This document shows, piece by piece, positions 115 through 64,000 of a stretch of DNA of 64,000 nucleotides. The translations under genes were made by a program, and so were the position numbers. Source of the DNA: Leucoraja ocellata (lineage: Eukaryota); contig JAWMAR010000041.1 of the NCBI GenBank assembly GCA_036785375.1, forward strand, positions 8,618,001-8,682,000, given 5' to 3'. Under the pieces are notes generated by a model. The model was not told where the DNA came from. It searched no databases and saw only the letters and a list, made by a program, of their open reading frames with translations. Each line of letters begins with the position of its first letter. The stretch's first letter is position 1.

Positions 115-33829
<33,715 letters not shown>

Positions 33830-34269: not shown

Positions 34270-37200
34270 AGCGTGAAGTGGCCCACTGCATCCGTATATC
34301 GGGTTTTATTTGCATTTTATCAGTTTCATCTGTATTATCTTGGCTCACTCGTGCCGCAAGCCAGCACACCTCATCTTTGACTCGGACATCGAAGAATGAT
34401 GGCAGCTCTTCGAGATCGACTACGAACACTATATCAACATCGTCCATCGAAATGACCCAGATGAAGTCAAAGCTTCCCTTCAACTAAACCTGGCAGTACC
34501 AGAGGCTTTGATGTGAGCGCAAACCTTCGACTTCTCGCGAGCCGTTCTTGACGATAATGGCAAGGTAGTTGTTCCAGCTGAGACTGTGCATAACCTCAAT
34601 GTCCTGCTACGTAAATTCCGCGAAATGTGTGACCTACCCTCTAACCACGTCTAGGAAAGAGCCAATTTCTTCACGTGACAACAGCTTCCTGATGAACCTG
34701 TTGAACGATTAATTTGTGATTTTTGTCAGTTTGATACTTGGCAGTGGCATGTCTGACCAAAAGCTCAAGACAGAACTATTACGGAATGCTGACCTAACTC
34801 TTGAACAAGCTGTGCATGCCTGCCGCATGTCTGAGATTGTGGCCCCACTGAACGACCAGTTTGACACTAAGATAAAGAGTATAAACCTGACAGGCTTCAT
34901 TAAACGAGCCATATCAACAGCCAACAGGAGATTTATGAATGAACAGCCGCAAACGGCTAATCGAGGATTTATGAATGAACCACAACAAAGATGTCCGAAC
35001 TGTAACTATCTCCACAACAAGGGACGGATATTCTGTGCAGCAAATGGCAAGCCATGCAACTACTGCAAGAAGATAAACCATTTCACCATTTGCTGCAGGT
35101 CCCGTGGAAACCGCAATTCTAGCTCGGCGTCTGATCTGCACGTGCTGCAACAAGACCAAACATTTTCAGAAGCTCGAAGCTGCCCACAAGGACGATCCAA
35201 TTAGCTCATATGAAGAGTCTACTGTTCACACCCTCCTCCACACAGTTGGTAAGCTTTTGGATCCCTCTGTGTCCATGCTAATTAATAACAAGTCTGTGAA
35301 GGCCAATTGGATATCGGGGCGCGAGTGAATGTAATGTCCCTGAAAGTCTACAACAAGATAAGAAATAATGAGACCTTGGCTAGAGATGACTCTACCCTGC
35401 AAGCTTATGGGGGGAGGTGCTGCATCCTCTTGGAAGAACTAGCTTTAAATGTGTATTGGAAAATACCACAAAAATTCTGACTTTCTACATCCTAAAATCG
35501 GACTCTGTGACTCTACTGGGCATCCATGCATGCCAGGACCTTGGGCTAGTCTTTTTCGATCGCTCCGTTCACAAGTTGCTTATATCTGAGGACCCAATTC
35601 GAACCTTCCCTGATCTGTTCGATGACAAGCTGGGCAAGCTTCCTGTGACTTATAAAATCGCCGTTGACTCCACCTTTGACCCAGCTATCCGTGCTCCCCA
35701 CCGCGTGCCACATGCCATGCATGACAGAATCCAGACTGAACTTAGAAATATGGTTTCCATGGGTGTACTGGCTGAAATCAGTGAACCTACAGACTGGGTC
35801 TCCACCATGGTTGTCACGAGAAAGAAAGACAAAGACGAGCTCCGTGTGTGCATCAACCCAAGAGACCTAAACACTGCCATCAAGCGCCCACATTATTCGA
35901 TAAGAACTGTCGAAGACGTCGCGGCCCAAATCGGTCGCGCAACTGTGTTCTCCGTACTAGACGCCAAAAGCTCATTCTGGCAGATACCTCTAGATGACCA
36001 GTCCTCGAACCTCACTACGTTCGCTACACCATTTGGCAGATTCAAATTTCTCAGAATGCCATTTGGTATCAATTTGGCTAGCGAAGTCTTTCAGAGAACC
36101 ATGGGCCAGCTGTTCACAGACTTCCCATGTGCCATCATTATAGATGACATCCTGGTGTATGGTATAGACGTAGCGGAGCATGACTACAATCTCAAGCAGA
36201 TTCTGGACAGGGCACATGAGATTGACCTAAAGTTCAACCACAAGAAATGCAAGTTCCGCGTTCCAGTGGTCACCTATGTCGGACACATATTCACTCGCGG
36301 TGGTCTGAAGCCAGACCTGAAGAAAACTGCAGCCATCCGCGAAATGCCTGCCCCTGTCGATGTACACAGCCTACAATGCTTTCTGGGTATGGTGAACTAC
36401 CTGGGAAAGTTTATACCCAATCTCAGTGAACTCAGTTCACCACTGAGACAGCTCACCTGCAAAAACACTGAATGGACCCAGTACCAGCAACACCAATTTG
36501 ACTTTTTTTAAATAGAGCTGGCTAGCACTCCAACCTTGACATACTTCGACCTGAAGCGACCTGTGACAATAACCTGTGATGCCTCACAATACGGGTTGGG
36601 CGCAGCCTGCCTTGAAACATCTGCCGACGGCATAGTATTACCGGTATCGTACACCTCTCGCACCATGACGGACACCGAACAATGCTATGCCCAAATTGAG
36701 AAGGAGCTGCTAGCTGTGGTCTTCGCATGCTCTAAATTTTAAAAATTTCATCTTTGGGAACACTTTCGCAGTTGAAACCGACCATCAACCACTAGTAACC
36801 ATCCTGAACCAACCCATTCACACAGCACCTGCACGTTTGCAGCACATGATGATGATGCAGCTCCAGCGGTTCGACTTCAGAATCGTTTACAAAAAAGGAA
36901 AGGACATGCTCATCGCCGACACTCTCTCTCATGCACCATGTGCATCTAGTGAATGACATCCCTATGAATGTGACAAGCTCACAGTTCTCAAGGTTGACTT
37001 CATTCCCACGGAACGCCTGTGTCGCCTGGCTGAACACACAGGCGCTCTCATCCATTATCAAAAGAGGCTGGCCAGAAAAACAATCCAGCACACACCATTG
37101 GAGGTACAGCCATTCTTCCTAGTCCATGGTGAGTTGGTAATACAAGACGGTGTCATTGTCAAGGGTCACAAAGTCGTGATCCCATCATCCTTACAAGACA

Positions 37201-38476
37201 AATACTGCAAAGAGGAACACAACGGCCACCCAGGCACCGAGGCCATGGTGGCTCATGCACAGAGCATGTTCTTGGCCTGGGATGTCCAAGTGCATACGGG
37301 ACAGAACAGCATCCTGCCCCATCTGCAACAGTTTGGCACCTCACCAACAAAACAGCCTCCACTGCAACAATCCCCTCCAGCACTGCCTTGGACATCTCTG
37401 GCAGTGGACATTTTTGAATGACACGGTAAACACTACCTAGTCCCAGTCGACTCCTAATCCAACTGGTTCGAACTCGACTTGTGCCCACCATCACATCCGA
37501 GATGGTTATACAAAAGCTTCAGAGACATTTTCCTCTATTCGGCACACCAGTTCGTCTGCAAACTGACAACGGAAGACAATTCACTAGCCACGTATTTAAA
37601 CACTTTGCCAAATGTTGGAACTTCCACCATGTCACAAGCAGCCCTGAATATCCCCAATCCAACGGCCTAGCTGAACATGCCATCAGGAGCACAAAACAAC
37701 TAATGGAACGCTCTCATCTTGCCAAGTCTGGTGTCTACCTCGACCTCTTAAACTTTAGAAACATTTCCAGGGACGGGGTCCTGGGTTCACCAGCTCAACG
37801 CCTGATGTCTCGTACAACACGACCTCCACTACCCGTTGCCCAGCGACAGCTGAAGCCACAGGTGTTTAAACCAGCTGCGGCCCAGAAGCGTATACAGGAG
37901 AAACACACCATTGAGAAGCGCTCCTATGACAAGTCCAGCAAACCACTGAAGCCGCCACTGCAGGGTCACGTTGTCCGTATGCAGACTGCTGTGGGACACA
38001 CCCTTCTGGGTTTCGGTGTCGGCCCGTCCAAGGAACCCCGCTCCTACCTTGTCAACGCTGATGGTGTTCTGTACAGTCAAAGCCGTCAGCATTTGCTGCT
38101 AGTCAACGAACCTCGACCACCTCCAGCCGATCCATATGCTCCACCTCTGCCGTTTAAACCCTCTACTGCTCCTGTTACCACTATTCCCAGCGTGCACTCT
38201 CCGCCTCGGTTGGTTACCCCATCTAGCCACGTTAACATTCCCGCATGCTCACCCCGCCGGTCGCCTCAAGCGTCCCCAGCTGCATTCTCCTTCTCGGGGT
38301 CACTGCGTCCCCCACTAACATTTCTAGTACAGAGGGAGAGAGGTTTGTCCGCACGCGTTTGGGTCGAATTAGTAGACCACCTGACAGATACGGCGAGTAC
38401 GTTTAATTGCGTGTGTTTAACATTTGTCTGACTGTTTAATATTTGCCTAACAACCTTTTCTCTTTACGGGGAAGGA

Positions 38477-38684: not shown

Positions 38685-39317
38685 CAGACATTTTGTCTTC
38701 TTTCTCTCTCTATCAATTCATTCTGTTCCCTCTCTTTTTGCCCTTTCCTAGTTTACTTTTACCCCTAATCACCCTCCTCCATTGCTTCCTTGCTTTCTTT
38801 CTCTACCCTTAAATTACGTTGATTTTGGGGAACCCAAGTATCATGCTGCTGTTGTTCTGTCATTATCCGATCACACTTTGGGACAAACAGCAGTGGAAAA
38901 ATAATGCAATCAAAAGAGATGTTCATCCCACTTAATGCATCACCTCAGCGATTTCTGCAGTGACTCACAGCGATTGCAACAATTAGCCACTAAAAAGATG
39001 CACAAGTCTTCAACTTTCTAAATTTAAAGAGCACCATCGAGGGTTGAGATAATTGGTTGTCAGCTTGGCCATTTGAAGACCGTTTGCATTGACATTTTTA
39101 CCTTTTAAAATCACTGCATTGTCTTTCCATCATTGTGCATTGATTTGGACTTCTGCCTCGCCCAATGATCTGATCAGTGTGTAGGAAAGAACTGCAGATG
39201 CTGGTTTAAATTGAAATTAGACACAAAATGTAACTCAGCGGGACAGGCAGCATCTCTGGAGAGAAGGAATAGGTGACGTTTCGGGACGAGACCCTAGTAC
39301 GAGGCATCATTGTTAAT

Positions 39318-41556
39318 CATTGTTAATTCAGAAACAATGGTTCTGAACTTAAAGAAAGGTAACTTTGAGGGTATGAGACGTGAATTGGCCAAGATTGACA
39401 GGCAATTCATTCTAAAAGGGTTGACAGTGGATATGCAATGGAAGACATTTAAAGACTGCATGGATGAACTACAAAAATTGTTCATCCCAGTTTGGCAAAA
39501 GAATAAATCAGGGAAGGTAGTACATCCGTGGTTAACAAGGGAAATCAGGGATAGTATCAAAGCGAAGGATGATGCGTACAAATTAGCCAGAAAAAGCAGC
39601 ATACCGGAGGACTGGGAGAAATTCAGAGACCAGCAGAGGAGGACAAAGGGCTTAATTAGGAAAGGAAAAATAGATTATGAAAGAAAACTGGCAGGGAACA
39701 TAAAAACTGACTGCAAAGGTTTTTATAGATATGTGAAAAGAAAGAGATTAGTTAAAACAAATGTAGGTCCCTTGCAGTCAGAAACAGGTGAGTTGATCAT
39801 GGGGAACAAGGATATGGCGGACCAATTGAATAACTACTTTGGTTCCGTCTTCACTAAGGAAGACATAAATAATCTGCCGGAAATAGCAGGGGACCGCGGG
39901 TCAAAGGAGTTGGAGGAATTGAGTGAATTCCAGGTTAGCCGGGAAGTGGTGTTGGGTAAATTGAATGGATTAAAGGCCGATAAATCCCCAGGGCCAGATG
40001 GGCTGCATCCCAGAGTACTTAAGGAAGTAGCTCCAGAAATAGTGGATGCATTAGTAATAATCTTTCAAAACTCTTTAGATTCTGGAGTAGTTCCTGAGGA
40101 TTGGCGGGTAGCAAATGTAACCCCACTTTTTAAGAGAAAACGGGGAATTACAGACCAGTTAGTCTAACATCGGTAGTGGGGAAACTGCTAGAGTCAATTA
40201 TTAAAGATGGGATAGCAGCACATTTGGAAAGTGGTGAAATCATTGGACAAAGTCAGCATGGATTTACGAAAGGTAAATCATGTCTGACGAATCTTATAGA
40301 ATTTTTCGAGGATGTAACTAGTAGCGTGGATAGGGGAGAACCAGTGGATGTGGTGTATCTGGACTTCCAGAAGGCTTTCGACAAGGTCCCACATAAGAGA
40401 TTAGTATACAAACTTAAAGCACACGGCATTGGGGGTTCAGTATTGATGTGGATAGAGAACTGGCTGGCAAACAGGAAGCAAAGAGTAGGAGTAAATGGGT
40501 CCTTTTCACAATGGCAGGCAGTGACTAGTGGGGTACTGCAAGGTTCAGTGCTGGGACCCCAGCTATTTACAATATATATTAATGATCTGGATGAGGGAAT
40601 TGAAGGCAATATCTCCAAGTTTGCGGATGACACTAAGCTGGGGGGCAGTGTTAGCTGTGAGGAGGATGCTAGGAGACTGCAAGGTGACTTGGATAGGCTA
40701 GGTGAGTGGGCAAATGTTTGGCAGATGCAGTATAATGTGGATAAATGTGAGGTTACCCATTTTGGTGGCAAAAACAGGAAAGCAGACTATTATCTCAATG
40801 GTGGCCGACTAGGAAAAGGGGAGACGCAGCGAGACCTGGGTGTCATGGTACACCAGTCATTGAAAGTAGGCATGCAGGTGCAGCAGGCAGTGAAGAAAGC
40901 GAATGGTATGTTAGCTTTCATAACAAAGGATTTGAGTATAGGAGCAGGGAGGTTCTACTGCAGTTGTACAGGGTCTTGGTGAGACTACACCTGGAGTATT
41001 GCGTACAGTTTTGGTCTCCAAATCTGAGGAAGGACATTATTGCCATAGAGGGAGTGCAGAGAAGGTTCACCAGACTGATTCCTGGGATGTCAGGACTGTC
41101 TTATGAAGAAAGACTGGATAGACTTGGTTTATACTCTCTAGAATTTAGGAGATTGAGAGGGGATCTTATAGAAACTTACAAAATTCTTAAGGGGTTGTAC
41201 AGGTTAGATGCAGGAAGATTGCTCCCGATGTTGGGGAAGTCCAGGACAAGGGGTCACAGCTTAAGGATAAGGGGGAAATCCTTTAAAACCGAGATGAGAA
41301 GAACTTTTTTCACACAGAGAGTGGTGAATCTCTGGAACTCTCTGCCACAGAGGCTAGTTGAGGCCAGTTCATTGGCTATATTTAAGAGGGAGTTAGATGT
41401 GGCCCTTGTGGCTAAGGGGATCAGAGGGTATGGAGAGAAGGCAGGTACGGGATACTGAGTTGGATGATCAGCCATGATCATATTGAATGGCGGTGCAGGA
41501 TCGAAGGGCCGAATGGCCTACTCCTGCACCTAATTTCTATGTTTCTATGTTTCTAT
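39318..41556 (+). mobile_element. CR1-clade LINE, longest copy, 5'-truncated, two frameshifts
   Basis: KSPGPDGLHPRVLKE, FADDTKL and RT motifs; (TTTCTATG)n tail; nearly identical to 1165-2570 over the shared part. Confidence 0.95.
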
Positions 41557-42728: not shown

Positions 42729-44752
42729 CATTATTGATCCACAAGTGGCCCATTTGTGCTAGACTATGATATTAATTATCATTTCAGCATTTCCAGTCAA
42801 AATATTAGCTGATCTTACTCCACTAATATCTTGTTGGGGTTCAGGAGCAGGGAGCCTGAGGGTTACAGTATCACAAATCTGTGAAAGTGGAGCAGCTGGG
42901 TATCACATCCCAAATTGTTATCCCACAAATGAGCATCAAGTTTCAAATGTTTATAAAATTATGATATTGCTCTGAACCAATCACAATCAGCTCATGCATT
43001 TTTTGTTTACCAAGAATGAAGCTTCCAAACGCTGGGCAAACTTGGGAGAGTTTCACTTTGAATTCAGTCAATGGAGTAACAACAAATCTACAATTCCTAA
43101 TGATGGGACTTTCTACCAGTACTAACAGCAATGATAAAGTCACCAGCCTTGATGTGCAAAATAATATATATATGGATCCAGGAACTGCAAAGCTGAGAAA
43201 CAATGATAAAGAAACTCAGTGGCCATATCAATTGAGATTTTCTGGGGCTACACAAAAGCCATATGAAACATTGCAGCACTGAAGTATCAAGCTAAGATGA
43301 ACAAAACAAATTAGACTCCATTCATCTTGAACACTGGCCACCACTAATTAGGAAATATCATCAGGATTCATCATAGAACACTGACACATCAGTGCCTGGA
43401 CATTCTCCAAGCTGCAGGCTCAGTGAGGGCTGATCTGATAGACATGTATAAGATCATGAGAAGAATAGATAGCGTGAATGCACCGTCTTTTACCCTAGGG
43501 TAGGGGAATCAAAACCAAGAGGACATATGTTTCAGGTGAGATCTTAAAATGTAATACATATTTTAGGGGAAACTTTTTTACTCAAAGATTGTGGCTTTAT
43601 GGAACGAGCTGCCAGAGGAGGTAGTTGAGTACGATAACAACATTTAAAAGACACTTGGACAGGTACATGGATAGAAAAGATTCCGAGAGATATGGGCAAA
43701 GCATGGGCCTAGCTTCGATAAGATATTTTGGTCAGCATGGACGAGTTGGTCGAAGGGCCTGTTTCCATGCCGTATAGCTCCATGCAGCAAAGCTGCCCAG
43801 GGAAACACAGGTATTTGGGATGATGGAAGAGCTTTTTTCCCTCAAGTTTCACACTATTAGCAAAAATCCCGAGTAAACAACAGGAAAGCCTGTTGGATTT
43901 GTCTGGCATCAAGCCTCGGCAAATCCAACAAATTACTCTGAATAAATTTGCTCTGGGTCAATCCCCTCTCTAACAACACCTTTCAATGCAATCACAGTTG
44001 AAAAAGCTCTCCTCCCTTACATCCCAAACCTTTGCAATGTCCAGCAACCAAAGCAGTCCTTCCAAATGAGATGGCTGTTCATTTACATTTCTTCCGACAC
44101 AGTGCACTGCAGTCAATGCTCAATGTGCAGTCCCCTTGACACCATGGACACCCAACACCCAACGTCAGCTTTGCAGAACAGAGGGAGAGAGATGGCAGAT
44201 GCTGGTGTTGAGACTGCAGATGCTGGACAATCGAAGGTACACAAAAATGCTGGAGAAACTCAGCGGGTGCAGCAGCATCTATGGAGCGAGGGAAATAGGC
44301 AACGTTTCGGGCTGAAACCCTTCTTCAGATGCTGGACCAAAAACAAAAACAGCTGCTGGAAGAACTCAGTAGGTCAAACAGCATCTGTGGAGGCAACTGG
44401 ATGGTCGGCGTTCAGGTCAAGACCCTGCATGAGGACTGACCACCTCCATTCAGTCTCCAAACATTGCCCTGCACCTGCAGTTATCTGTCACTATAATTCT
44501 ATAACCCAAACCTATTCTAACCTCTCTACCTATGGCCTTCAAATCAACTCAACATCAGCATGATGAACAGTAATCTACTCACCCCCGTGGCAAATGGCAG
44601 CCTTCCAGATTCAATAATAAAGTCAACAATTTCATTGAAGTCTCCAATCCACCTTCCTATCTCACATTTTCTACATTTGGATTTTTTTGCTTTCCTCTCC
44701 GCTGGCAAATACAGATTTCATTGTTACCCCAGACAGTAACTTCATTAGTTAT

Positions 44753-44932
44753 AGAAACATAGAAACATAGAAATTAGGTGCAGGAGTAGGCCATTCGGCC
44801 CTTCGAGCCTGCACCGCCATTCAATATGAGCATGGCTGATCATCCAACTCAGTATCCCGTACCTGTCTTCTCTCCATACCCTCTGATCCCCTTAGCCACA
44901 AGGGCCACATCTAACTCCCTCTTAAATATAGC
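44753..44932 (-). mobile_element. Young CR1 3' end
   Basis: (CATAGAAA)n tail plus the reverse complement of about 41380-41556. Confidence 0.9.
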
Positions 44933-45076
44933 TTTTGAATATAAATTATGAGCCTTTACCATCCACTTCCACCACTACTGCTGCTACATCCAACCTCAGC
45001 TGGTCTCTATCTGACACAGTGCTTTCCTTTGGTCCTCTCCTTTACATATCCAACTTTTCTACAATCTGATTAAGGA

Positions 45077-46943: not shown

Positions 46944-47531
46944 ATGGGCAGAAATCTCTTTTAAACCATGGGGGGGGGGGGGGGACACAATGAGGCCTGA
47001 CATCTAGGACAGGGGTCGGCAACCTTTGGCCCACGGGCTGGATCCGGCCCTTAACCTGAAATCATCCGGCCAGCAGGCGTATTTTTCTTCAATTAGTTTT
47101 CGCGACCAGGGAACTGCAGCCAGTCCCGGTGCACGCAGGTGACCTGGGCGCTACAGCCAGACATGGGGCAAGCGTGCCGACCTGGGCGCTACAGCCAGAC
47201 ATGGGGCAAGCGAGCCGACCTGGGAACTGCAGCCAGTCCCGGAGCATGCAGGGGCGCTACAGCCAGACATGGGGCAAGCGAGCCGACCTGGGCGCTACAG
47301 CCAGACATGGGGCAAGCGAGCCGACCTGGGAACTGCAGCCATTCCAGGGGCACGCAGGTGACATGGGAACTACAGCCAGACCTGCCAGCCGACCTGGACG
47401 CTACAGCTTGTCCCAGGGGTTTTTGCTGCAACATGTTTCACAAAACATGGGGGAGATTGTCCCTCACCTCTCAAAACATGTATGGGGACAGGTTCCCCAC
47501 CCCTCCCCCCACTCCCAGGATTTCTGCCCAT
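46944..47531. mobile_element. Composite DNA-transposon remnant with an internal 38-bp minisatellite
   Basis: 13-bp inverted ends ATGGGCAGAAATC / GATTTCTGCCCAT; internal hAT-type left end CAGGGGTCGGCAACC at 47010; no TSD found. Confidence 0.55.
47108..47410 (+). repeat. Minisatellite, 38-bp unit GACCTGGGCGCTACAGCCAGACATGGGGCAAGCGAGCC with a variant unit
   Basis: Adjacent copies at 47141-47178 and 47179-47216, interleaved with GGGAACTGCAGCC-type variants. Confidence 0.9.
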
Positions 47532-53199: not shown

Positions 53200-56100
53200 A
53201 CTGGGTCGACAGCGTTGCTCCGCGAATTGCCACTTTCTGAAAACTGGTTATTGCCCTTAATAGTAAGTGAGTAGAGAACAAGAGGGCTGTTGCAACAATA
53301 TAAATACTTATGCTGTGGTGAACCATGAGTGCAATTCTACCCAGATCGTGTAGGGGGCGCCATAGTTCCCGTCTCGCACTCGCATTTGTACAAATTTCTA
53401 TTCGATCTCCCGATGCTCAGTTCCATCAATAATTCGATCCGAATTAGTGACAACAAAACTCAAAGTGCTTTGTTTTCGTTTACTCGCCGTCCGCACAATT
53501 TTCTAACCTATTTCTGTAACGTTTTTCCAAATACTCACATGAGTTGATAAATCAATCATATATTTTTATCTATTCGTATTCGTTTCAAAGTTAGTGCGTT
53601 TTGAAAAAAGCAAAATTATTTTGTAAACACTTTAATGTTATTCATGCCACAAATAGGTGCAACTACCCAGCGTCTACGTGAGCCTTGTACGGACAATGCT
53701 ACTCAGTTATAGCTTTAGTCAAAACACAACCCGCTGGTGGAGCCCAGCGGGTCACACAGCAGCATCTGTGGGGAGAGTGGACCGGCGACGTTTCAGGTCG
53801 GGACCCTTCTTCAGTCTGGGGTAGGGTCCTGACCCGAAAGGTCGTCTATCCATTTCACTCTCCAGATGCTGCCTGACCTGCTGAGTTCCTCCAGAACTTT
53901 GTGTTTTGCTCAACATTCCAGCATCTGCACCGTCTTGGTTCTCCGTAGCTTTAGTTATTTCAACCACGTATGTATGAGATAGGGTTTATGATTCGAACCC
54001 CAATAATTGATCACATTTATTTGTCTCTCGGCTACCAAAGATTGGTCAATTGAAATTTCGTTTCTACGGTCAATAGGCTTTGCTCTGCGTGTGCACATGT
54101 AAGCAGCAGTTTGAAAACTTGGGTTCTGAGACTGTAAACCATTACCCTGCCGGCTGTAGTAAAAGTCAGACGCATAAGTCTTAGTTATCAGACTCAGCGA
54201 ACCGCTTTTAATGTTCGCCCTCTGGAGACCATCAAAAAGGGGACAGCAGAATCCAGACTGACAGAGCCACGGACCAAAACCGCTGTGCAAAAATCCTATT
54301 CGGCCCCTCGGAGACCGAGAGATGGGATTGGACAACGAACGCCTCTCTTGTGTAATGATGATGGGGTGTAATGAAAACCCTCCCGTGCTCACTTGAGCTG
54401 GCATCTTGCAAACGACGAGCAATGCCTCCCCCCGCTGGCGCTGGCCATCTCCCCATCGGAGAGAAGGTTTCGAGCACCGATTGCAATCTGTCCCGCTGCC
54501 CCAAATACTGCCATGAGTTAATAAAAGATTGAACTGCCTGCCCGGAATAGAACTACACAACCACGCGATCGTCAATAACGAATATAAACGGGTTACAACA
54601 GTTTAAAACATTCGCCTCGCATTTATCAAATACAGGGATTAAACTAGGGCGAATAGAAGGGATTTCCCTGGGACAGAAATTGCTTTATCAAAAGCTTGCC
54701 TTACAGGCGCTCCATTGTACTCGACTTTACATGGCTAGAAGCAACAGCAGCAGAAGCAGCTCCTTAAAGTGCCAGCTACCGACTGAGGTCGGATGCCCAC
54801 TCTCCGTGCGCTCTATTTTATCGCCATAGTGCGCGTTAACCGTTTCGGTGCCACCCGGACAGCTGGTCCAGTCCACCCGCTGGGTTTTGGCACTTGGGTA
54901 AAGAGCTTGAAGATAGCTTCGGGCCAAATGGTTGCGCGACCGGCCGCCCGCTGTTCCTCAATCTGCTGTGTGAAAAATCAGGCGAAATGTTGGCGTTGGG
55001 GGGTGGGGGCTGTGAGAGAATGGTTGGAGATTGTACTGAGAAAGAAAGGTGGGGGCGTAGGGGAACTGTGAGCCCCGTGCCTTTGAGAAAAGCCCAGAAC
55101 TAAAAAAAACGCAGGGAAACTTATAATAGACTACAGATGTATTACTGGGGAGTGTGTATAAGTATGTGGATCAGGGAGGATGGGGGAGGGGATGGAGAAA
55201 AAGAGAAACAGCGAGAGAAGAGAGAGGAGAGATTATAAAAAGGAATGACGGAAATAAAAAAGGAAACGCGCAAAGGAAAGAAAGGGGAAAGATAAGAGGA
55301 CAGTTGAGGTGGGAACGGCAGGGAAAGACGGCGCCTCAGAGAGCAGAAAGAGGAATTATTTACTGATGGGGTCCATCATACAGAAAAGAGCCTAATGCTT
55401 AACAGAAATAGCCCAAGCTGCAGGGAAGATGTGTGAGCGCTAACAGGGAGAAGTGATGGGACTGGGGGTTGCGGGGAAACGGCAGAATGCTCCGAGACAA
55501 AGAGTCGCGCAACTAAAATAAACGCCCGTTCTGTTCCTACCTCGGTTACTTTAGCGCCCGCCGAAACTCCAGCACAGCTCGCAACTCAGTGCAGCTCACT
55601 TCACGGACACTCCAACAGTCCTGGCACCGTTCTCCTTTCCTTCCTGTTTACGCAATTCATCCGCATGGCAAGCCTCCCGGACAATCCAAAAAATCTCTCC
55701 CTCCTCCACCCTCGATCCAGGGACAGTATAGTATTGCCAGCAAAAAAAAAATCCTGTATCTTGTTCGAAATTCCTTAAACCCCTGACGCAGGCAACCGAT
55801 GGCTTCCACATCCACCGCCAATGTGTTTGTCATTATAGGATCTGCGCACCAAAGCCATCATCGTTAGTGCTGTCCAAGTGCAATGCAACGAGCGGCGGGC
55901 TGGCGTGACACAACACCATCGGAGGCAGCAGTCCTCTCACTCCCATCACACAACAGCAACACACCAAAAAACACACTGCAGTCCTCAGACAAGTATTTCA
56001 CATTCAACCTCCAGCCTCTCCAAGTCAAAGAAATTCGCACTCCCGCACAATTTTTTTTAAGCCAAAGATAACAATCTTCAGAAAATAGTCGTCCACACTA

Positions 56101-59032: not shown

Positions 59033-61513
59033 AACAAATTCATGAACAACTATCGTTCATCTCGGTGCTTCTGTGAACGAGTCTCTTCGTTCATAAACAA
59101 CATTCGGGGGGGGGGGGGGGGGGGGGGTGAGGGACATCCGGCATTAACGTGCATGCGACCAGTCTACATTTATGCACAGCTGAGATAGGACGTACATATG
59201 CCACGTAACTCTTTACACAAACACATATCAGCATAATCCGATCAGGATCTGGAGAAGGCGATAACTCATTTGCAGATTACTCTCATGTTAGTTTATTCCA
59301 ACCTCGAGATTTGAAATCTAACCATTGCGGTTCGATGCAGGTGCAGGTTGGGATAAAACTAAAGACTTTTCCATGAATAAATTCACGATTTGCTCCAACA
59401 TTTCGCAGTCCAGAATCCAGCAATTATTTAGATTGTCGTTTCCGTTTGTTTTGTGACCTTACTCAAAATGAATGCTTTGATGTACATTCTAAACAAGCAA
59501 AAACTGTTCCAAACAACAGTGTCACCAAGCGGAAATCAAAGCATCGCCCTGTTTATGATCATGCAGTTGATGGAGCTCCAGTACATCCCCGGGACGGCTG
59601 CCAGCGAGCGCTGCCTGTCACTCTCTGGAGATCGAGCATTGACCCCCAACTCCCCTTAGCGCATTCAACTGCAATTACCAGTCTCGTTCGCAGAGTCTCT
59701 GTTCCGCGCTCATTAACAAACATTTACCATAAAAAAGTTCCCTTGTGTGTGAATTTATTTGCGGATCTGGGAATGTGACAAGAGGAAGGGACGAAGTGGG
59801 CAGAACCAGCCCTCTGCCTGCAACGCAATCACCTCTCACTTTGTAGCTAATCTGCTTCATTTAATGCAGCGAGAGCAGACTAACTCCCCGTTTGATTGCC
59901 TTGGAGTCAGGGGAGTAATGGCGGGGTGAATATTACTGAAACTGCTGTCGCTCGGTGGGATGTCGTTTGTAAATCCCAAACATTTAAATCTCTCCGCGTC
60001 TTTTGCCCGACGCGGATTGTTAAATCGGACCAGCTGGGCCCTCATCTTGCTGGGGATGATCTGCCGGGAAAAAGGCAATTAAATAAACTGCCCGGCGACC
60101 TGAGTGGAATCTGTGTGGTCCTAATGGGCAGGAGGGTAAAAAAAAATGCCTCCAAATTGACAGGTCTGTTTGTTTATTTGTTTCTTATCAGGCCGTGCGT
60201 CTGATAGAAAGCGTTAAAATGCTCACCATATGTGTCCCCCGATGGTTTATTGAAGACCTCTAGTCCCTACAGTGCCAACTCCTTCACCATATGTCACACA
60301 GTGCTGGGACGCAAAGTAACCCATCGAAATGATACGCGTTTTTTGTATTAATCCCAATATGAGATGAATATTGAGTGAATTGTTCGCCACCTCTACAAAA
60401 AACATTGGATATGTTCAGAATCAGCACTAATAGAATCCAGACTTCGGATTTACCACAACCCCACGCAGTGAGCGCTATTCGTCTCAAAATAACTATTACT
60501 CTGTTCCCTGTGAGTGATAGCTAAGGCTCGTTGTTCCTTTGGGTGGGAGGGGATGTCTATATTAATTTTTGCGTGATTTTTAAATGTAATCGATTTGGGA
60601 TTAGTAGGTTCGTGTGAGCAGTTACTGCCAGCGCCTACCGCGAATTGGCCGCAAATGTAAACTAGCTGTGGCGTTTGATCTCATCTTTGAGACCAAGGTT
60701 TTACTGATTGATGCTCAAGCACGCTTCACCCGTGTAGCAAAGAGTACGTGCGACTTCAGCGTGCCAGCTTAGTTTCATGACTTTAAACCTTCATGTTTGT
60801 TTTGGAGATCAGATGATTTGTTAGGTCGCGAGTGCTGAAATTAAATAAAGACACAGAGTGATGGAGTAACTCGGTGAGTCAGGCAGCAGGTCTGAAGAAG
60901 GGTCCCGACCCGAAACGTCACCCATCCTTTTCCTCCAGAGATGCTGCCTGGACCGCTGAGTACTTTTTGCCTGACTTCGCTACATACCAACATCTGTAGT
61001 TCATTTCTACACATCTCTGGATAGGTGACGTTTTGGGTCGGGGCCCTTCTTCAGAATTCAGATGCTGCCCGACCCACTGAGTTCCTCCAGCACTCTGTCT
61101 TTTTTTTTAATAAACAAACATCTGCAGTTCCTCCATGCTGGCTGATATTAAATGTTGGGAACTATTTGGACTTTAGTCCTGGTCTCGCCTGATCTTCAGG
61201 TGCATTATCCCAATCCTTTTCTCGTGGTCGGTTCTCAAGGGAGTTTGCCATCGTATCTATTTCGTCCGTTACTACGACTTTTGTTTTACTATTTATTGCG
61301 GCACATTACGTGTTTACTACGTCCATTGTGCGATGTCTTTAAAGCAGGTAAGTCATATATTTGAACCAGCTCTACTTACCGACTTTATTTCTCCGGAAAC
61401 ACATTTCATTGACTGAAACCCCATTCAAACTATAAGCAGGAGTGGACGTTTTGGCCCCATGCGCTCCGCCATTCAATACCATCATGGTTGATATTTTACC
61501 TCAGCGTCACTTT

Positions 61514-62815: not shown

Positions 62816-62860
62816 AATTTGGGAACCCATCCATCGTGAATGCAATTACTAATATGCTCA

Positions 62861-62957
62861 AGATAGACACAAATCGCTGGAGTAACTCAGCGGGATAGAC
62901 AGCGTCTCCGGAGAGAAGGAATGGGTGACATTTCAGGTCGAGACCCTTCTTCAGACT
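62861..62957 (-). mobile_element. Same family, single-arm copy
   Basis: 12-bp TSD CTAATAT(G/A)CTCA with one mismatch (62849-62860 and 62958-62969). Confidence 0.75.
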
Positions 62958-64000
62958 CTAATATACTCATGCTAATACTATATGTATATATCTAAATTAT
63001 TAATATAGTCAGCTCCCACCCTCCACGGCCGCCAGTCGTACACACACACACACACACACATTGATGATCGAAATGCTAACCGTTTTCTGTAAAATGTGGT
63101 GCATTTTGTGCGAGAACATCAGAGGAAGTCACAATTGTGATCATTCAGTGCACCAAGGGTGAGTTAAGAACATACCACACGTGACCTATCCAATGTTACC
63201 ACGAATGGATTCGCTGCAGGTCTCTCGCGTTCACAATTCTACAGTTCCTCAGTTCCATTCCTCTCCAACAGTCAAGACTTCTGTTTTGATTCATTATTCA
63301 CGCATTTGTCAGTGGTACTTGCAGGTAGCGTTCATTTTGCTGACAGTAAACTGGTCTGCTGCACATTGATTCGATCTTTGCGTCAGGATACTCCACGAGA
63401 ATCCAAGTATGTGACCCCCAAATCTCCATCTAACCAGCCCACAGTCCTCGCCCAATTTCTTACCGGACCGATAGAGTACCTGGTGACCTGGTCAGAAGGT
63501 AATAAAGACACGAGGATATTGATTTTTCTAAATCAAAATACAAGGGGCTGGAGGAACTCGGCGGGTTAAGCAACATCTCAGGGGCACATAGATAAATGAC
63601 ATTTCGGGTCTACACCCTTCTTCAGACCCGAGTCCCGACCCGAAACGTCGCCTATCTATGAGATACAGAAATGTTGCCTGACCCACTGAGTTACTCTAGC
63701 ACTTTTTATTTAACGAGAAATAAAGCCGTCAATTCTTATAGACGGTGATTTTAAGATGTGTTGCCTGTGGCGGGTCTTCAACGTTTTCCTAAACACGGCA
63801 TTGTCCATTTCCCAATCGATTTATCTCGGACATTCACCCAATCTTTGGCACAAGGTAGGTTGCACGAACATATGGCCAGCTATTTGAGCTGTTAGGATGC
63901 CTGTCATATAGTAGTTCAATCCTGCCTCACCTCTGCTATCTGATGTGACCGCAGTTTCAGGTATACCTGGACTGGAAGTTCCTGCGCATTTACCCAGTCC

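Follow-up and report, generated by a model that had tools for sequence, protein, structure and literature searches.

Is the short, highly repeated motif at 60892-60919 of the window (the whole 64,000-nucleotide stretch of skate DNA analysed here) a hammerhead ribozyme, and to what kind of element does it belong? The motif is very probably a minimal hammerhead (min-HHR) in the pseudo-LTR (pLTR) of an autonomous Penelope-like element (PLE) whose clade is likely Neptune. The short repeats that carry it are likely clipped insertions of that element, produced by target-primed reverse transcription of mostly uncleaved RNA. Both the ribozyme class and its link to PLEs have already been published, and the finding itself is ordinary; its value lies in the material, namely a vertebrate element of Neptune type that is intact, has been active recently and has left thousands of insertions that are nearly identical.

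The hammerhead core and its conservation

Read from the window sequence, the RNA of 60892-60919 is CUGAAGA-A-GGGU(CCCG)ACCC-GAAA-CG-UC, with the following parts:

60892..60919, plus strand: minimal type I hammerhead core, recognized by its sequence, passing the strict descriptor and fitting the min-HHR consensus (PMC4209133, cited here, like the other sources below, for the accessible part of its text)
60892-60898, plus strand: C3-A9, followed by the extra A at 60899 and by helix II at 60900-60903/60908-60911
60912-60915, plus strand: G12-A15.1, followed by the palindromic C15.2-G16.2 and by U16.1-C17, with the predicted cut after 60919
60889..60922, plus strand: helix I, with the family pairs G60890-C60921 and U60891-A60920; G60889-C60922 is not family sequence

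The CUGANGA, GAAA and NUH elements of the core are all present, G10.1-C11.1 is preceded by an extra base before helix II, and helix I, which measures 2 bp in the current subfamilies and 3-4 bp in an old one, lies within the 2-5 bp of min-HHRs. On every sequence feature examined, the motif belongs to the published class of minimal type I hammerheads of PLEs, as the preliminary description had proposed, any self-cleavage by it being putative. Two details of the fold drawn in that description are to be corrected. As a 2-nt loop on a 5-bp stem cannot close for reasons of RNA sterics, helix II is a stem of 4 bp with a 4-nt loop, and not one of 5 bp with a 2-nt loop. The third pair of helix I is an accident of the focal junction: G60889 is the junction base of an inverted arm ending at 60888, the family base at the equivalent position is A, and the pair forms in 2-4% of copies, so that the family helix I is of 2 bp (GU/AC or GU/GC), one pair being a wobble in the active element. 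The extra A between positions 9 and 10.1 is present in 94-96% of copies and G10.1 in 92-94%, and positions 15.2-16.2 are palindromic (ACGU) without a helix III, the ACGU self-duplex amounting to -1.7 kcal/mol. With metazoan PLE min-HHRs (PMC4209133) the skate motif has in common CUGANGAH, the extra base, G10.1-C11.1, the GAAAN-palindrome-NUH arrangement, the absence of helix III, the location in the pLTR, and the occurrence of solo and opposite-strand copies; its 4-bp helix II and 2-bp helix I stand at the short end of the range given there.

The presence of the motif is not due to chance, since core matches with ≤3 mismatches number 7 in the window and 0 in 100 shuffles, and two 31-nt core variants have 15,546 and 25,986 exact matches in the genome against none for reversed-pattern controls. 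All ten further copies named earlier are present within 4 nt of the places given for them. With a profile derived from natural copies, the window yields 38 arms, distributed over 21 regions, and 7 of the 38 pass the strict min-HHR descriptor; an unselected 464 kb, made up of the window and 40 10-kb stretches (ten of which adjoin it), yields 200 arms. Extrapolated from this sample, the 3.44-Gb genome would hold ~1.4 million arms, which bears out the massive amplification claimed for the repeat and is far above the 4,000-9,000 copies of coelacanth and Xenopus (PMC4209133). The strict descriptor has 33 distinct matches in the 464 kb, 31 of them from the PLE family, and none in the reversed sequence. 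It is also passed by a CUGAGGA...GAAAGCUU motif that is unrelated and whose helix II is weak, in two copies 1.45 kb apart at one locus; no PLE link was seen for this motif, which is probably a chance match in a local duplication. A scan of the window with Rfam returned no hammerhead model match at E≤1.

Modelled in context, the hammerhead fold is disfavoured, P(helix II) staying < 0.01 in both the focal and the active copy, in line with the low activity of min-HHRs in vitro and with the protein-assisted cleavage of Poseidon_Ac (PAc). The prediction for most copies in the genome, among them the focal one, is that they are inactive, and the earlier suspicion to that effect is probably right. Constraint was scored in 426 tail-selected copies with the 5' part kept, out of 560 tail matches. 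Polymorphism is absent from all 24 columns that are catalytic or paired but present in 14 of the 61 tail columns (p 0.008), a contrast whose tolerant column set was chosen after the data had been seen; over all 32 hammerhead columns, 5 are polymorphic, no lower a rate than in the tail (p 0.59). Of the five, two are in the loop, one is H17 (C/U) and two are A/G positions pairing with U; the fold is kept in all.

The varying inner stem pairs described earlier are real as variants. The changes are one-sided wobbles (U-A to U.G, C-G to U.G), paired fractions equal the expectation under independence, and double-sided covariation is absent among the young and middle subfamilies. Compensatory changes appear only in comparison with the old subfamily and with distant PLEs, which represent few independent lineages. 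In the old subfamily, for which a 19-nt pattern gives 172 matches, helix I is built of different pairs, C-G, U-A and G-C, and core position 9 is C in 94 of the first 100 matches listed; later subfamilies all keep the full catalytic set, with only fold-compatible changes. At distant PLE loci the core comes with helix II sequences that are unrelated: among 21 distant metagenome loci, 6 pass the descriptor downstream of the endonuclease and 3 more have a relaxed core, the core being absent or doubtful in the remaining 12, several of which leave little room for it. A U3-A8 core variant, described for Schistosoma (PMC4209133), occurs at two distant PLE loci. The pattern of substitutions suggests that the fold is likely under selection in the master lineage, its cleavage being a prediction.

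The autonomous element

The end of a GIY-YIG reading frame is found upstream of many cores. With the endonuclease fragment as the only query, 190,826 first-look candidates were obtained, and in 25 of the best 30 loci the core lies 60-116 nt downstream of the GIY-YIG endonuclease; the 25 include the query locus itself and several duplicated pairs, and among the other five the core is decayed in one, while four loci are cut off. A search with an N-terminal piece of the protein returns many genome copies with long open frames, and the intact ORF, of 1,233 codons from stop to stop and 1,221 aa from the first Met, was counted nine times in 20 stretches chosen from the list of that search. The intact element occurs in head-to-tail arrays with a 3,946-bp period, and head-to-head ORFs are present at six loci. 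The hammerhead unit lies 112 nt past the ORF stop and directly ahead of the next ORF, in the pLTR, and the proposed link of the motif to Penelope termini therefore stands.

The protein has matches to RVT_1 (E 1.5e-6) and GIY-YIG (E 0.013), both under the Pfam cut-offs; read directly, it shows GIY-CxxC-YIG with two His (CCHH) and a CX4CX2C linker between the reverse transcriptase (RT) and endonuclease (EN) domains. A single frame with RT plus a GIY-YIG of CCHH type at its C-terminus, tandem and inverted pLTRs, an optional 30-40-bp tail and variable target duplications place the element, by the criteria of PMC8557442, among the EN+ PLEs of Neptune or Nematis type, the CX2-5CxxC linker found here being common to both clades in that source. 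The clade is likely Neptune, the separation from Nematis resting on motifs and not on a tree. The single RT and GIY-YIG frame, CCHH, the Cys linker, partial tandems, inverted 5' copies and the 30-40-bp tail are all common to the Neptune clade (PMC8557442). Unlike the Neptune elements described there, the skate element has a long ORF with a Pro/Ala-rich N-terminal insert, and its hammerhead is located ~165 nt upstream of the first Met. The insert is repetitive, comprises ~300 aa, and lies between a helical N-terminus and the RT.

Scoring of 8,000 candidates gave 853 relatives of the ORF, most of them 700-950 aa long and the closest of those scored with 53% identity; proteins labelled as whale shark and two rays show 61-63% identity, a skate label also occurs among such fragments, and a PDB sequence search with the ORF gave no match. 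No report of the PLE family from a skate or shark was found in the literature, and cartilaginous fish are absent from the searched part of the PMC4209133 supplement; the family may well be in Repbase or Dfam. Retrozymes have been reported in one cartilaginous fish (preprint 10.64898/2026.07.22.740005), whose supplements may list the skate family.

Short copies in the window and the genome

The focal locus and the principal other copies in the window, with 5' ends numbered from C3 = 0, are the following:

60890..61012, plus strand: short direct PLE unit made up of the hammerhead, the conserved block of the pLTR and the optional 3' tail in a decayed state; matched by the profile over model positions 3-127
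60836..60888, minus strand: inverted 5'-truncated arm, head-to-head with the focal unit; fold z = -4.1, P(helix II) 0.007
61012..61056, minus strand: second inverted arm, with a hammerhead copy at 61027-61054 in which G12 is changed to A
61060..61132, plus strand: partial direct arm of pLTR block and tail without hammerhead, partner of the second inverted arm
12908..13118, unstranded: head-to-head pair whose junction is the hammerhead 5' edge
22538..22777, unstranded: head-to-head pair, 90-93% identity to the pLTR of the intact element
15373..15592, unstranded: head-to-head pair, strict descriptor passed by the minus arm
53707..53929, unstranded: head-to-head pair, strict descriptor passed by the minus arm
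63511..63730, unstranded: head-to-head pair
6096..6269, unstranded: asymmetric head-to-head pair, focal-like
44212..44329, minus strand: single unit with tail, 93% identity to the intact element
3250..3354, minus strand: single unit without tail, 93% identity to the intact element
62841..62957, minus strand: single unit with its 5' end at -3
10496..10608, plus strand: single unit with G10.1 mutated
44015..44128, plus strand: decayed PLE linker/endonuclease fragment, the only trace of the ORF within the window (47% identity by tblastn, E 3e-5)

The focal locus is an older composite of four arms, spanning 60836-61132, around which a target duplication was looked for and not found. Its direct unit begins at the -2 hot spot described below and is 80% identical to the pLTR of the intact element over 60890-60961. 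The arm at 60836..60888 pairs with the tail of this unit (60941-60975) in a long RNA hairpin that is predicted to disrupt helix II.

Ends of young copies were scored in 99 of the first 100 listed among 6,747 genome matches of a 32-nt tail pattern of the young subfamily. The 3' ends are bimodal, with two positions ~36 nt apart: 56 of the 99 are short, 41 carry a tail of 31-43 nt, and 2 run into the next unit. Copy lengths form a continuous series from 35 bp to >1.4 kb, with 3' ends in common and heterogeneous 5' flanks. Target-site duplications of 9-17 bp, counted with microhomology included, flank 19 of 27 hand-picked non-inverted copies, and an inverted partner is present in 44 of the 99. Exact head-to-head junctions number 5,089 genome-wide, with spacers that vary between loci. 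Since flanks and spacers vary and target duplications are present, the short copies are very probably independent insertions of one master, and the distinct non-autonomous element envisaged in the preliminary description gives way to the 3' end of an autonomous Neptune-type PLE, whose copies were likely clipped during target-primed reverse transcription of mostly uncleaved RNA.

The 5' ends are sharply concentrated at the edge of the ribozyme. Among the 99 young copies, 27 end at -5..0, within 6 nt of the helix I 5' edge, and termination per nt is 0.074 there, ~30 times higher than the 0.0025 of the 50 nt upstream. It is 0.008 in the core and likewise 0.008 at the predicted cut site (+27..+33, 5 copies), so that these copies show no excess of 5' ends at the predicted cleavage site. 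Over the whole genome, the match to the element is lost at -2 in 4,425 of 25,986 cores and at -3 in 2,468, together 26.5%, a figure that includes a few substitutions. No report of a 5' truncation hot spot at a hammerhead edge was found in the literature.

In 31 matches, a deletion at the head-to-head junction sets the inverted arm opposite the cleavage-side strand and restores a long helix I of 3-33 bp. The hammerhead is the predicted fold in most of the 15 examined, and such copies may be genomic ribozymes that have become active by accident. No match was obtained with a 35-nt pattern that combines an intact core with a long helix I.

Proposed mechanism and alternative readings

The protein of the element would nick the DNA and, as measured for PAc of the anole, prime reverse transcription at either of two internal sites, ~66 or 102 nt downstream of the predicted cut. 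The cDNA would often stop at the 5' edge of helix I, most likely since the template RNA starts there, at an initiator-like YCAGT, a cause given slightly less than an even chance. Strong-stop-like inserts of 96 or 132 bp would result, and a second, inverted copy would often be joined head-to-head at the same edge. Cutting by the ribozyme is predicted to require a dimer, formed through the ACGU palindrome, together with the help of the protein, and the cut would likely be unnecessary for each insertion. In a more far-reaching form, which is held tentatively and with the balance somewhat against it, the RNA would start at the first hammerhead base and RT would prime ~100-135 nt downstream in the same pLTR; strong-stop-like cDNA inserting alone, as a by-product and not a SINE, would have made the >1 million mini-repeats and palindromes, uncleaved RNA would be the template in vivo, and the hammerhead would serve as a late or regulatory switch.

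The comparison with PAc of Anolis (PMC11167929) extends to two tail-defining 3' ends, which in PAc reflect two reverse-transcription starts, to the lack of ends at the cleavage site, and to an uncleaved template; PAc differs in belonging to the Poseidon clade and in an ORF that starts inside the hammerhead, and a 5' hot spot is not described for it in the accessible text of that source. The skate insertions give in vivo support for two results obtained in vitro with PAc, the two start sites and the uncleaved template, and the sharp 5' hot spot bears on the role of PLE hammerheads and on the origin of head-to-head repeats.

What stops the cDNA at this edge can be read in more than one way. YCAGT is kept ahead of the core in all subfamilies while the remaining UTR diverges, and it is absent before the core in the distant metagenome loci, which makes it a lineage-specific feature. 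The initiator consensus is YYANWYY, and the fit of YCAGT to it supports an RNA start there; PLE promoters sit in the pLTR (PMC2377424, PMC3846280). Against the start site stand the mode at -2 instead of the initiator A at -3, a cap-G signal that was not replicated (G precedes the junction in 20 of 36 in a small set, and in 32 of 100 and 27 of 100 in larger listings counted by hand), and the absence of a pile of RNA ends in three raw RNA runs of a same-labelled organism and two contig sets (fragmented libraries). Ends at -3/-2 are scattered and their flanks mixed, as expected of copies carried within host transcripts; they have no bearing on cleavage. The hot spot may instead stem from arrest or processing at a folded or protein-bound hammerhead, or from fold-back of the TCAG-T-CTGA near-palindrome, a serious possibility that falls somewhat short of even. 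It would account for a mode at the last base of helix I, for termination raised fourfold over the entire core and for the missing cap-G signal, and the TCAG overlap is used in 5 of 15 inverted hot-spot junctions. Structural stalls, however, are expected at the 3' entry of a fold, the fold is unstable in silico, and the hot spot is also the end point of 11 of the 50 copies that abut host DNA directly, so that inversion or fold-back is not needed. Run-off at the RNA 5' end is preferred, with arrest at the ribozyme edge nearly as likely, and under either the copied templates would be mostly uncleaved, as in PAc. It is also conceivable, but given very little weight, that CAG|U serves as a splice acceptor, with splicing producing the boundary of the copies, given the pyrimidine-rich AG-free stretch followed by YAG in all subfamilies and the Drosophila virilis intron that ends at helix I (PMC4209133). 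A spliced-type junction from one donor, however, has 2 matches, both in unrelated old UTR, no GT..AG joint occurs among the RNA matches listed, and the duplications abut the boundary, so that no host exon is carried.

The insertion model also has to be set against two readings of the repeat and its core. A separate non-autonomous element, retrozyme- or SINE-like, with master copies of its own and moved by the PLE protein, would explain the sharp, unit-like ends at ~96 or 132 bp and the very high copy number, and animal retrozymes do derive from PLE pLTRs; like the skate copies, these non-LTR retrozymes are short, non-coding and hammerhead-bearing (preprint 10.64898/2026.07.22.740005). This origin is nevertheless improbable, as the diagnostic bases of the intact element are found in the short copies, which pass gradually into long ones, palindrome spacers differ among loci, flanks differ and show duplications, and helices I and III are unlike the retrozyme type. 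Retrozymes form ~300-bp head-to-tail arrays (10.64898/2026.07.22.740005), whereas the skate copies are dispersed singles and head-to-head pairs: the 200 arms include 40 such pairs and only 15 close direct neighbours, no 300-bp array was seen among them, and the skate tandems consist of 3,946-bp coding units. Rather doubtful, with more in its favour, is the view that the core has lost cleavage in the skate lineage and is retained in the role of a promoter or protein-binding element. The 2-bp helix I, the change of A9 to C in the old subfamily, the lack of a cleavage footprint in the copies and the ability of PAc ribozyme mutants to insert in vitro (PMC11167929) all speak for it; against it, all later subfamilies retain the catalytic set with fold-compatible changes, published PLE hammerheads include 2-bp helix I and GUU triplets (PMC4209133), and PAc cleaves with protein help (PMC11167929).

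Other repeats share the window with the PLE units. Young LINE copies with 96-99% mutual identity lie at 1024-2571, 39298-41556, 18064-18375 and 44749-44939, and older ones at 8631, 11052, 20633 and 49560; these LINEs resemble the CR1-type HER1 LINE of sharks and rays. Translations of 35390-38431 reveal a broken Gypsy-like LTR retroelement pol with RT and integrase pieces, and 47108-47395 is a tandem array of ~38-bp units.
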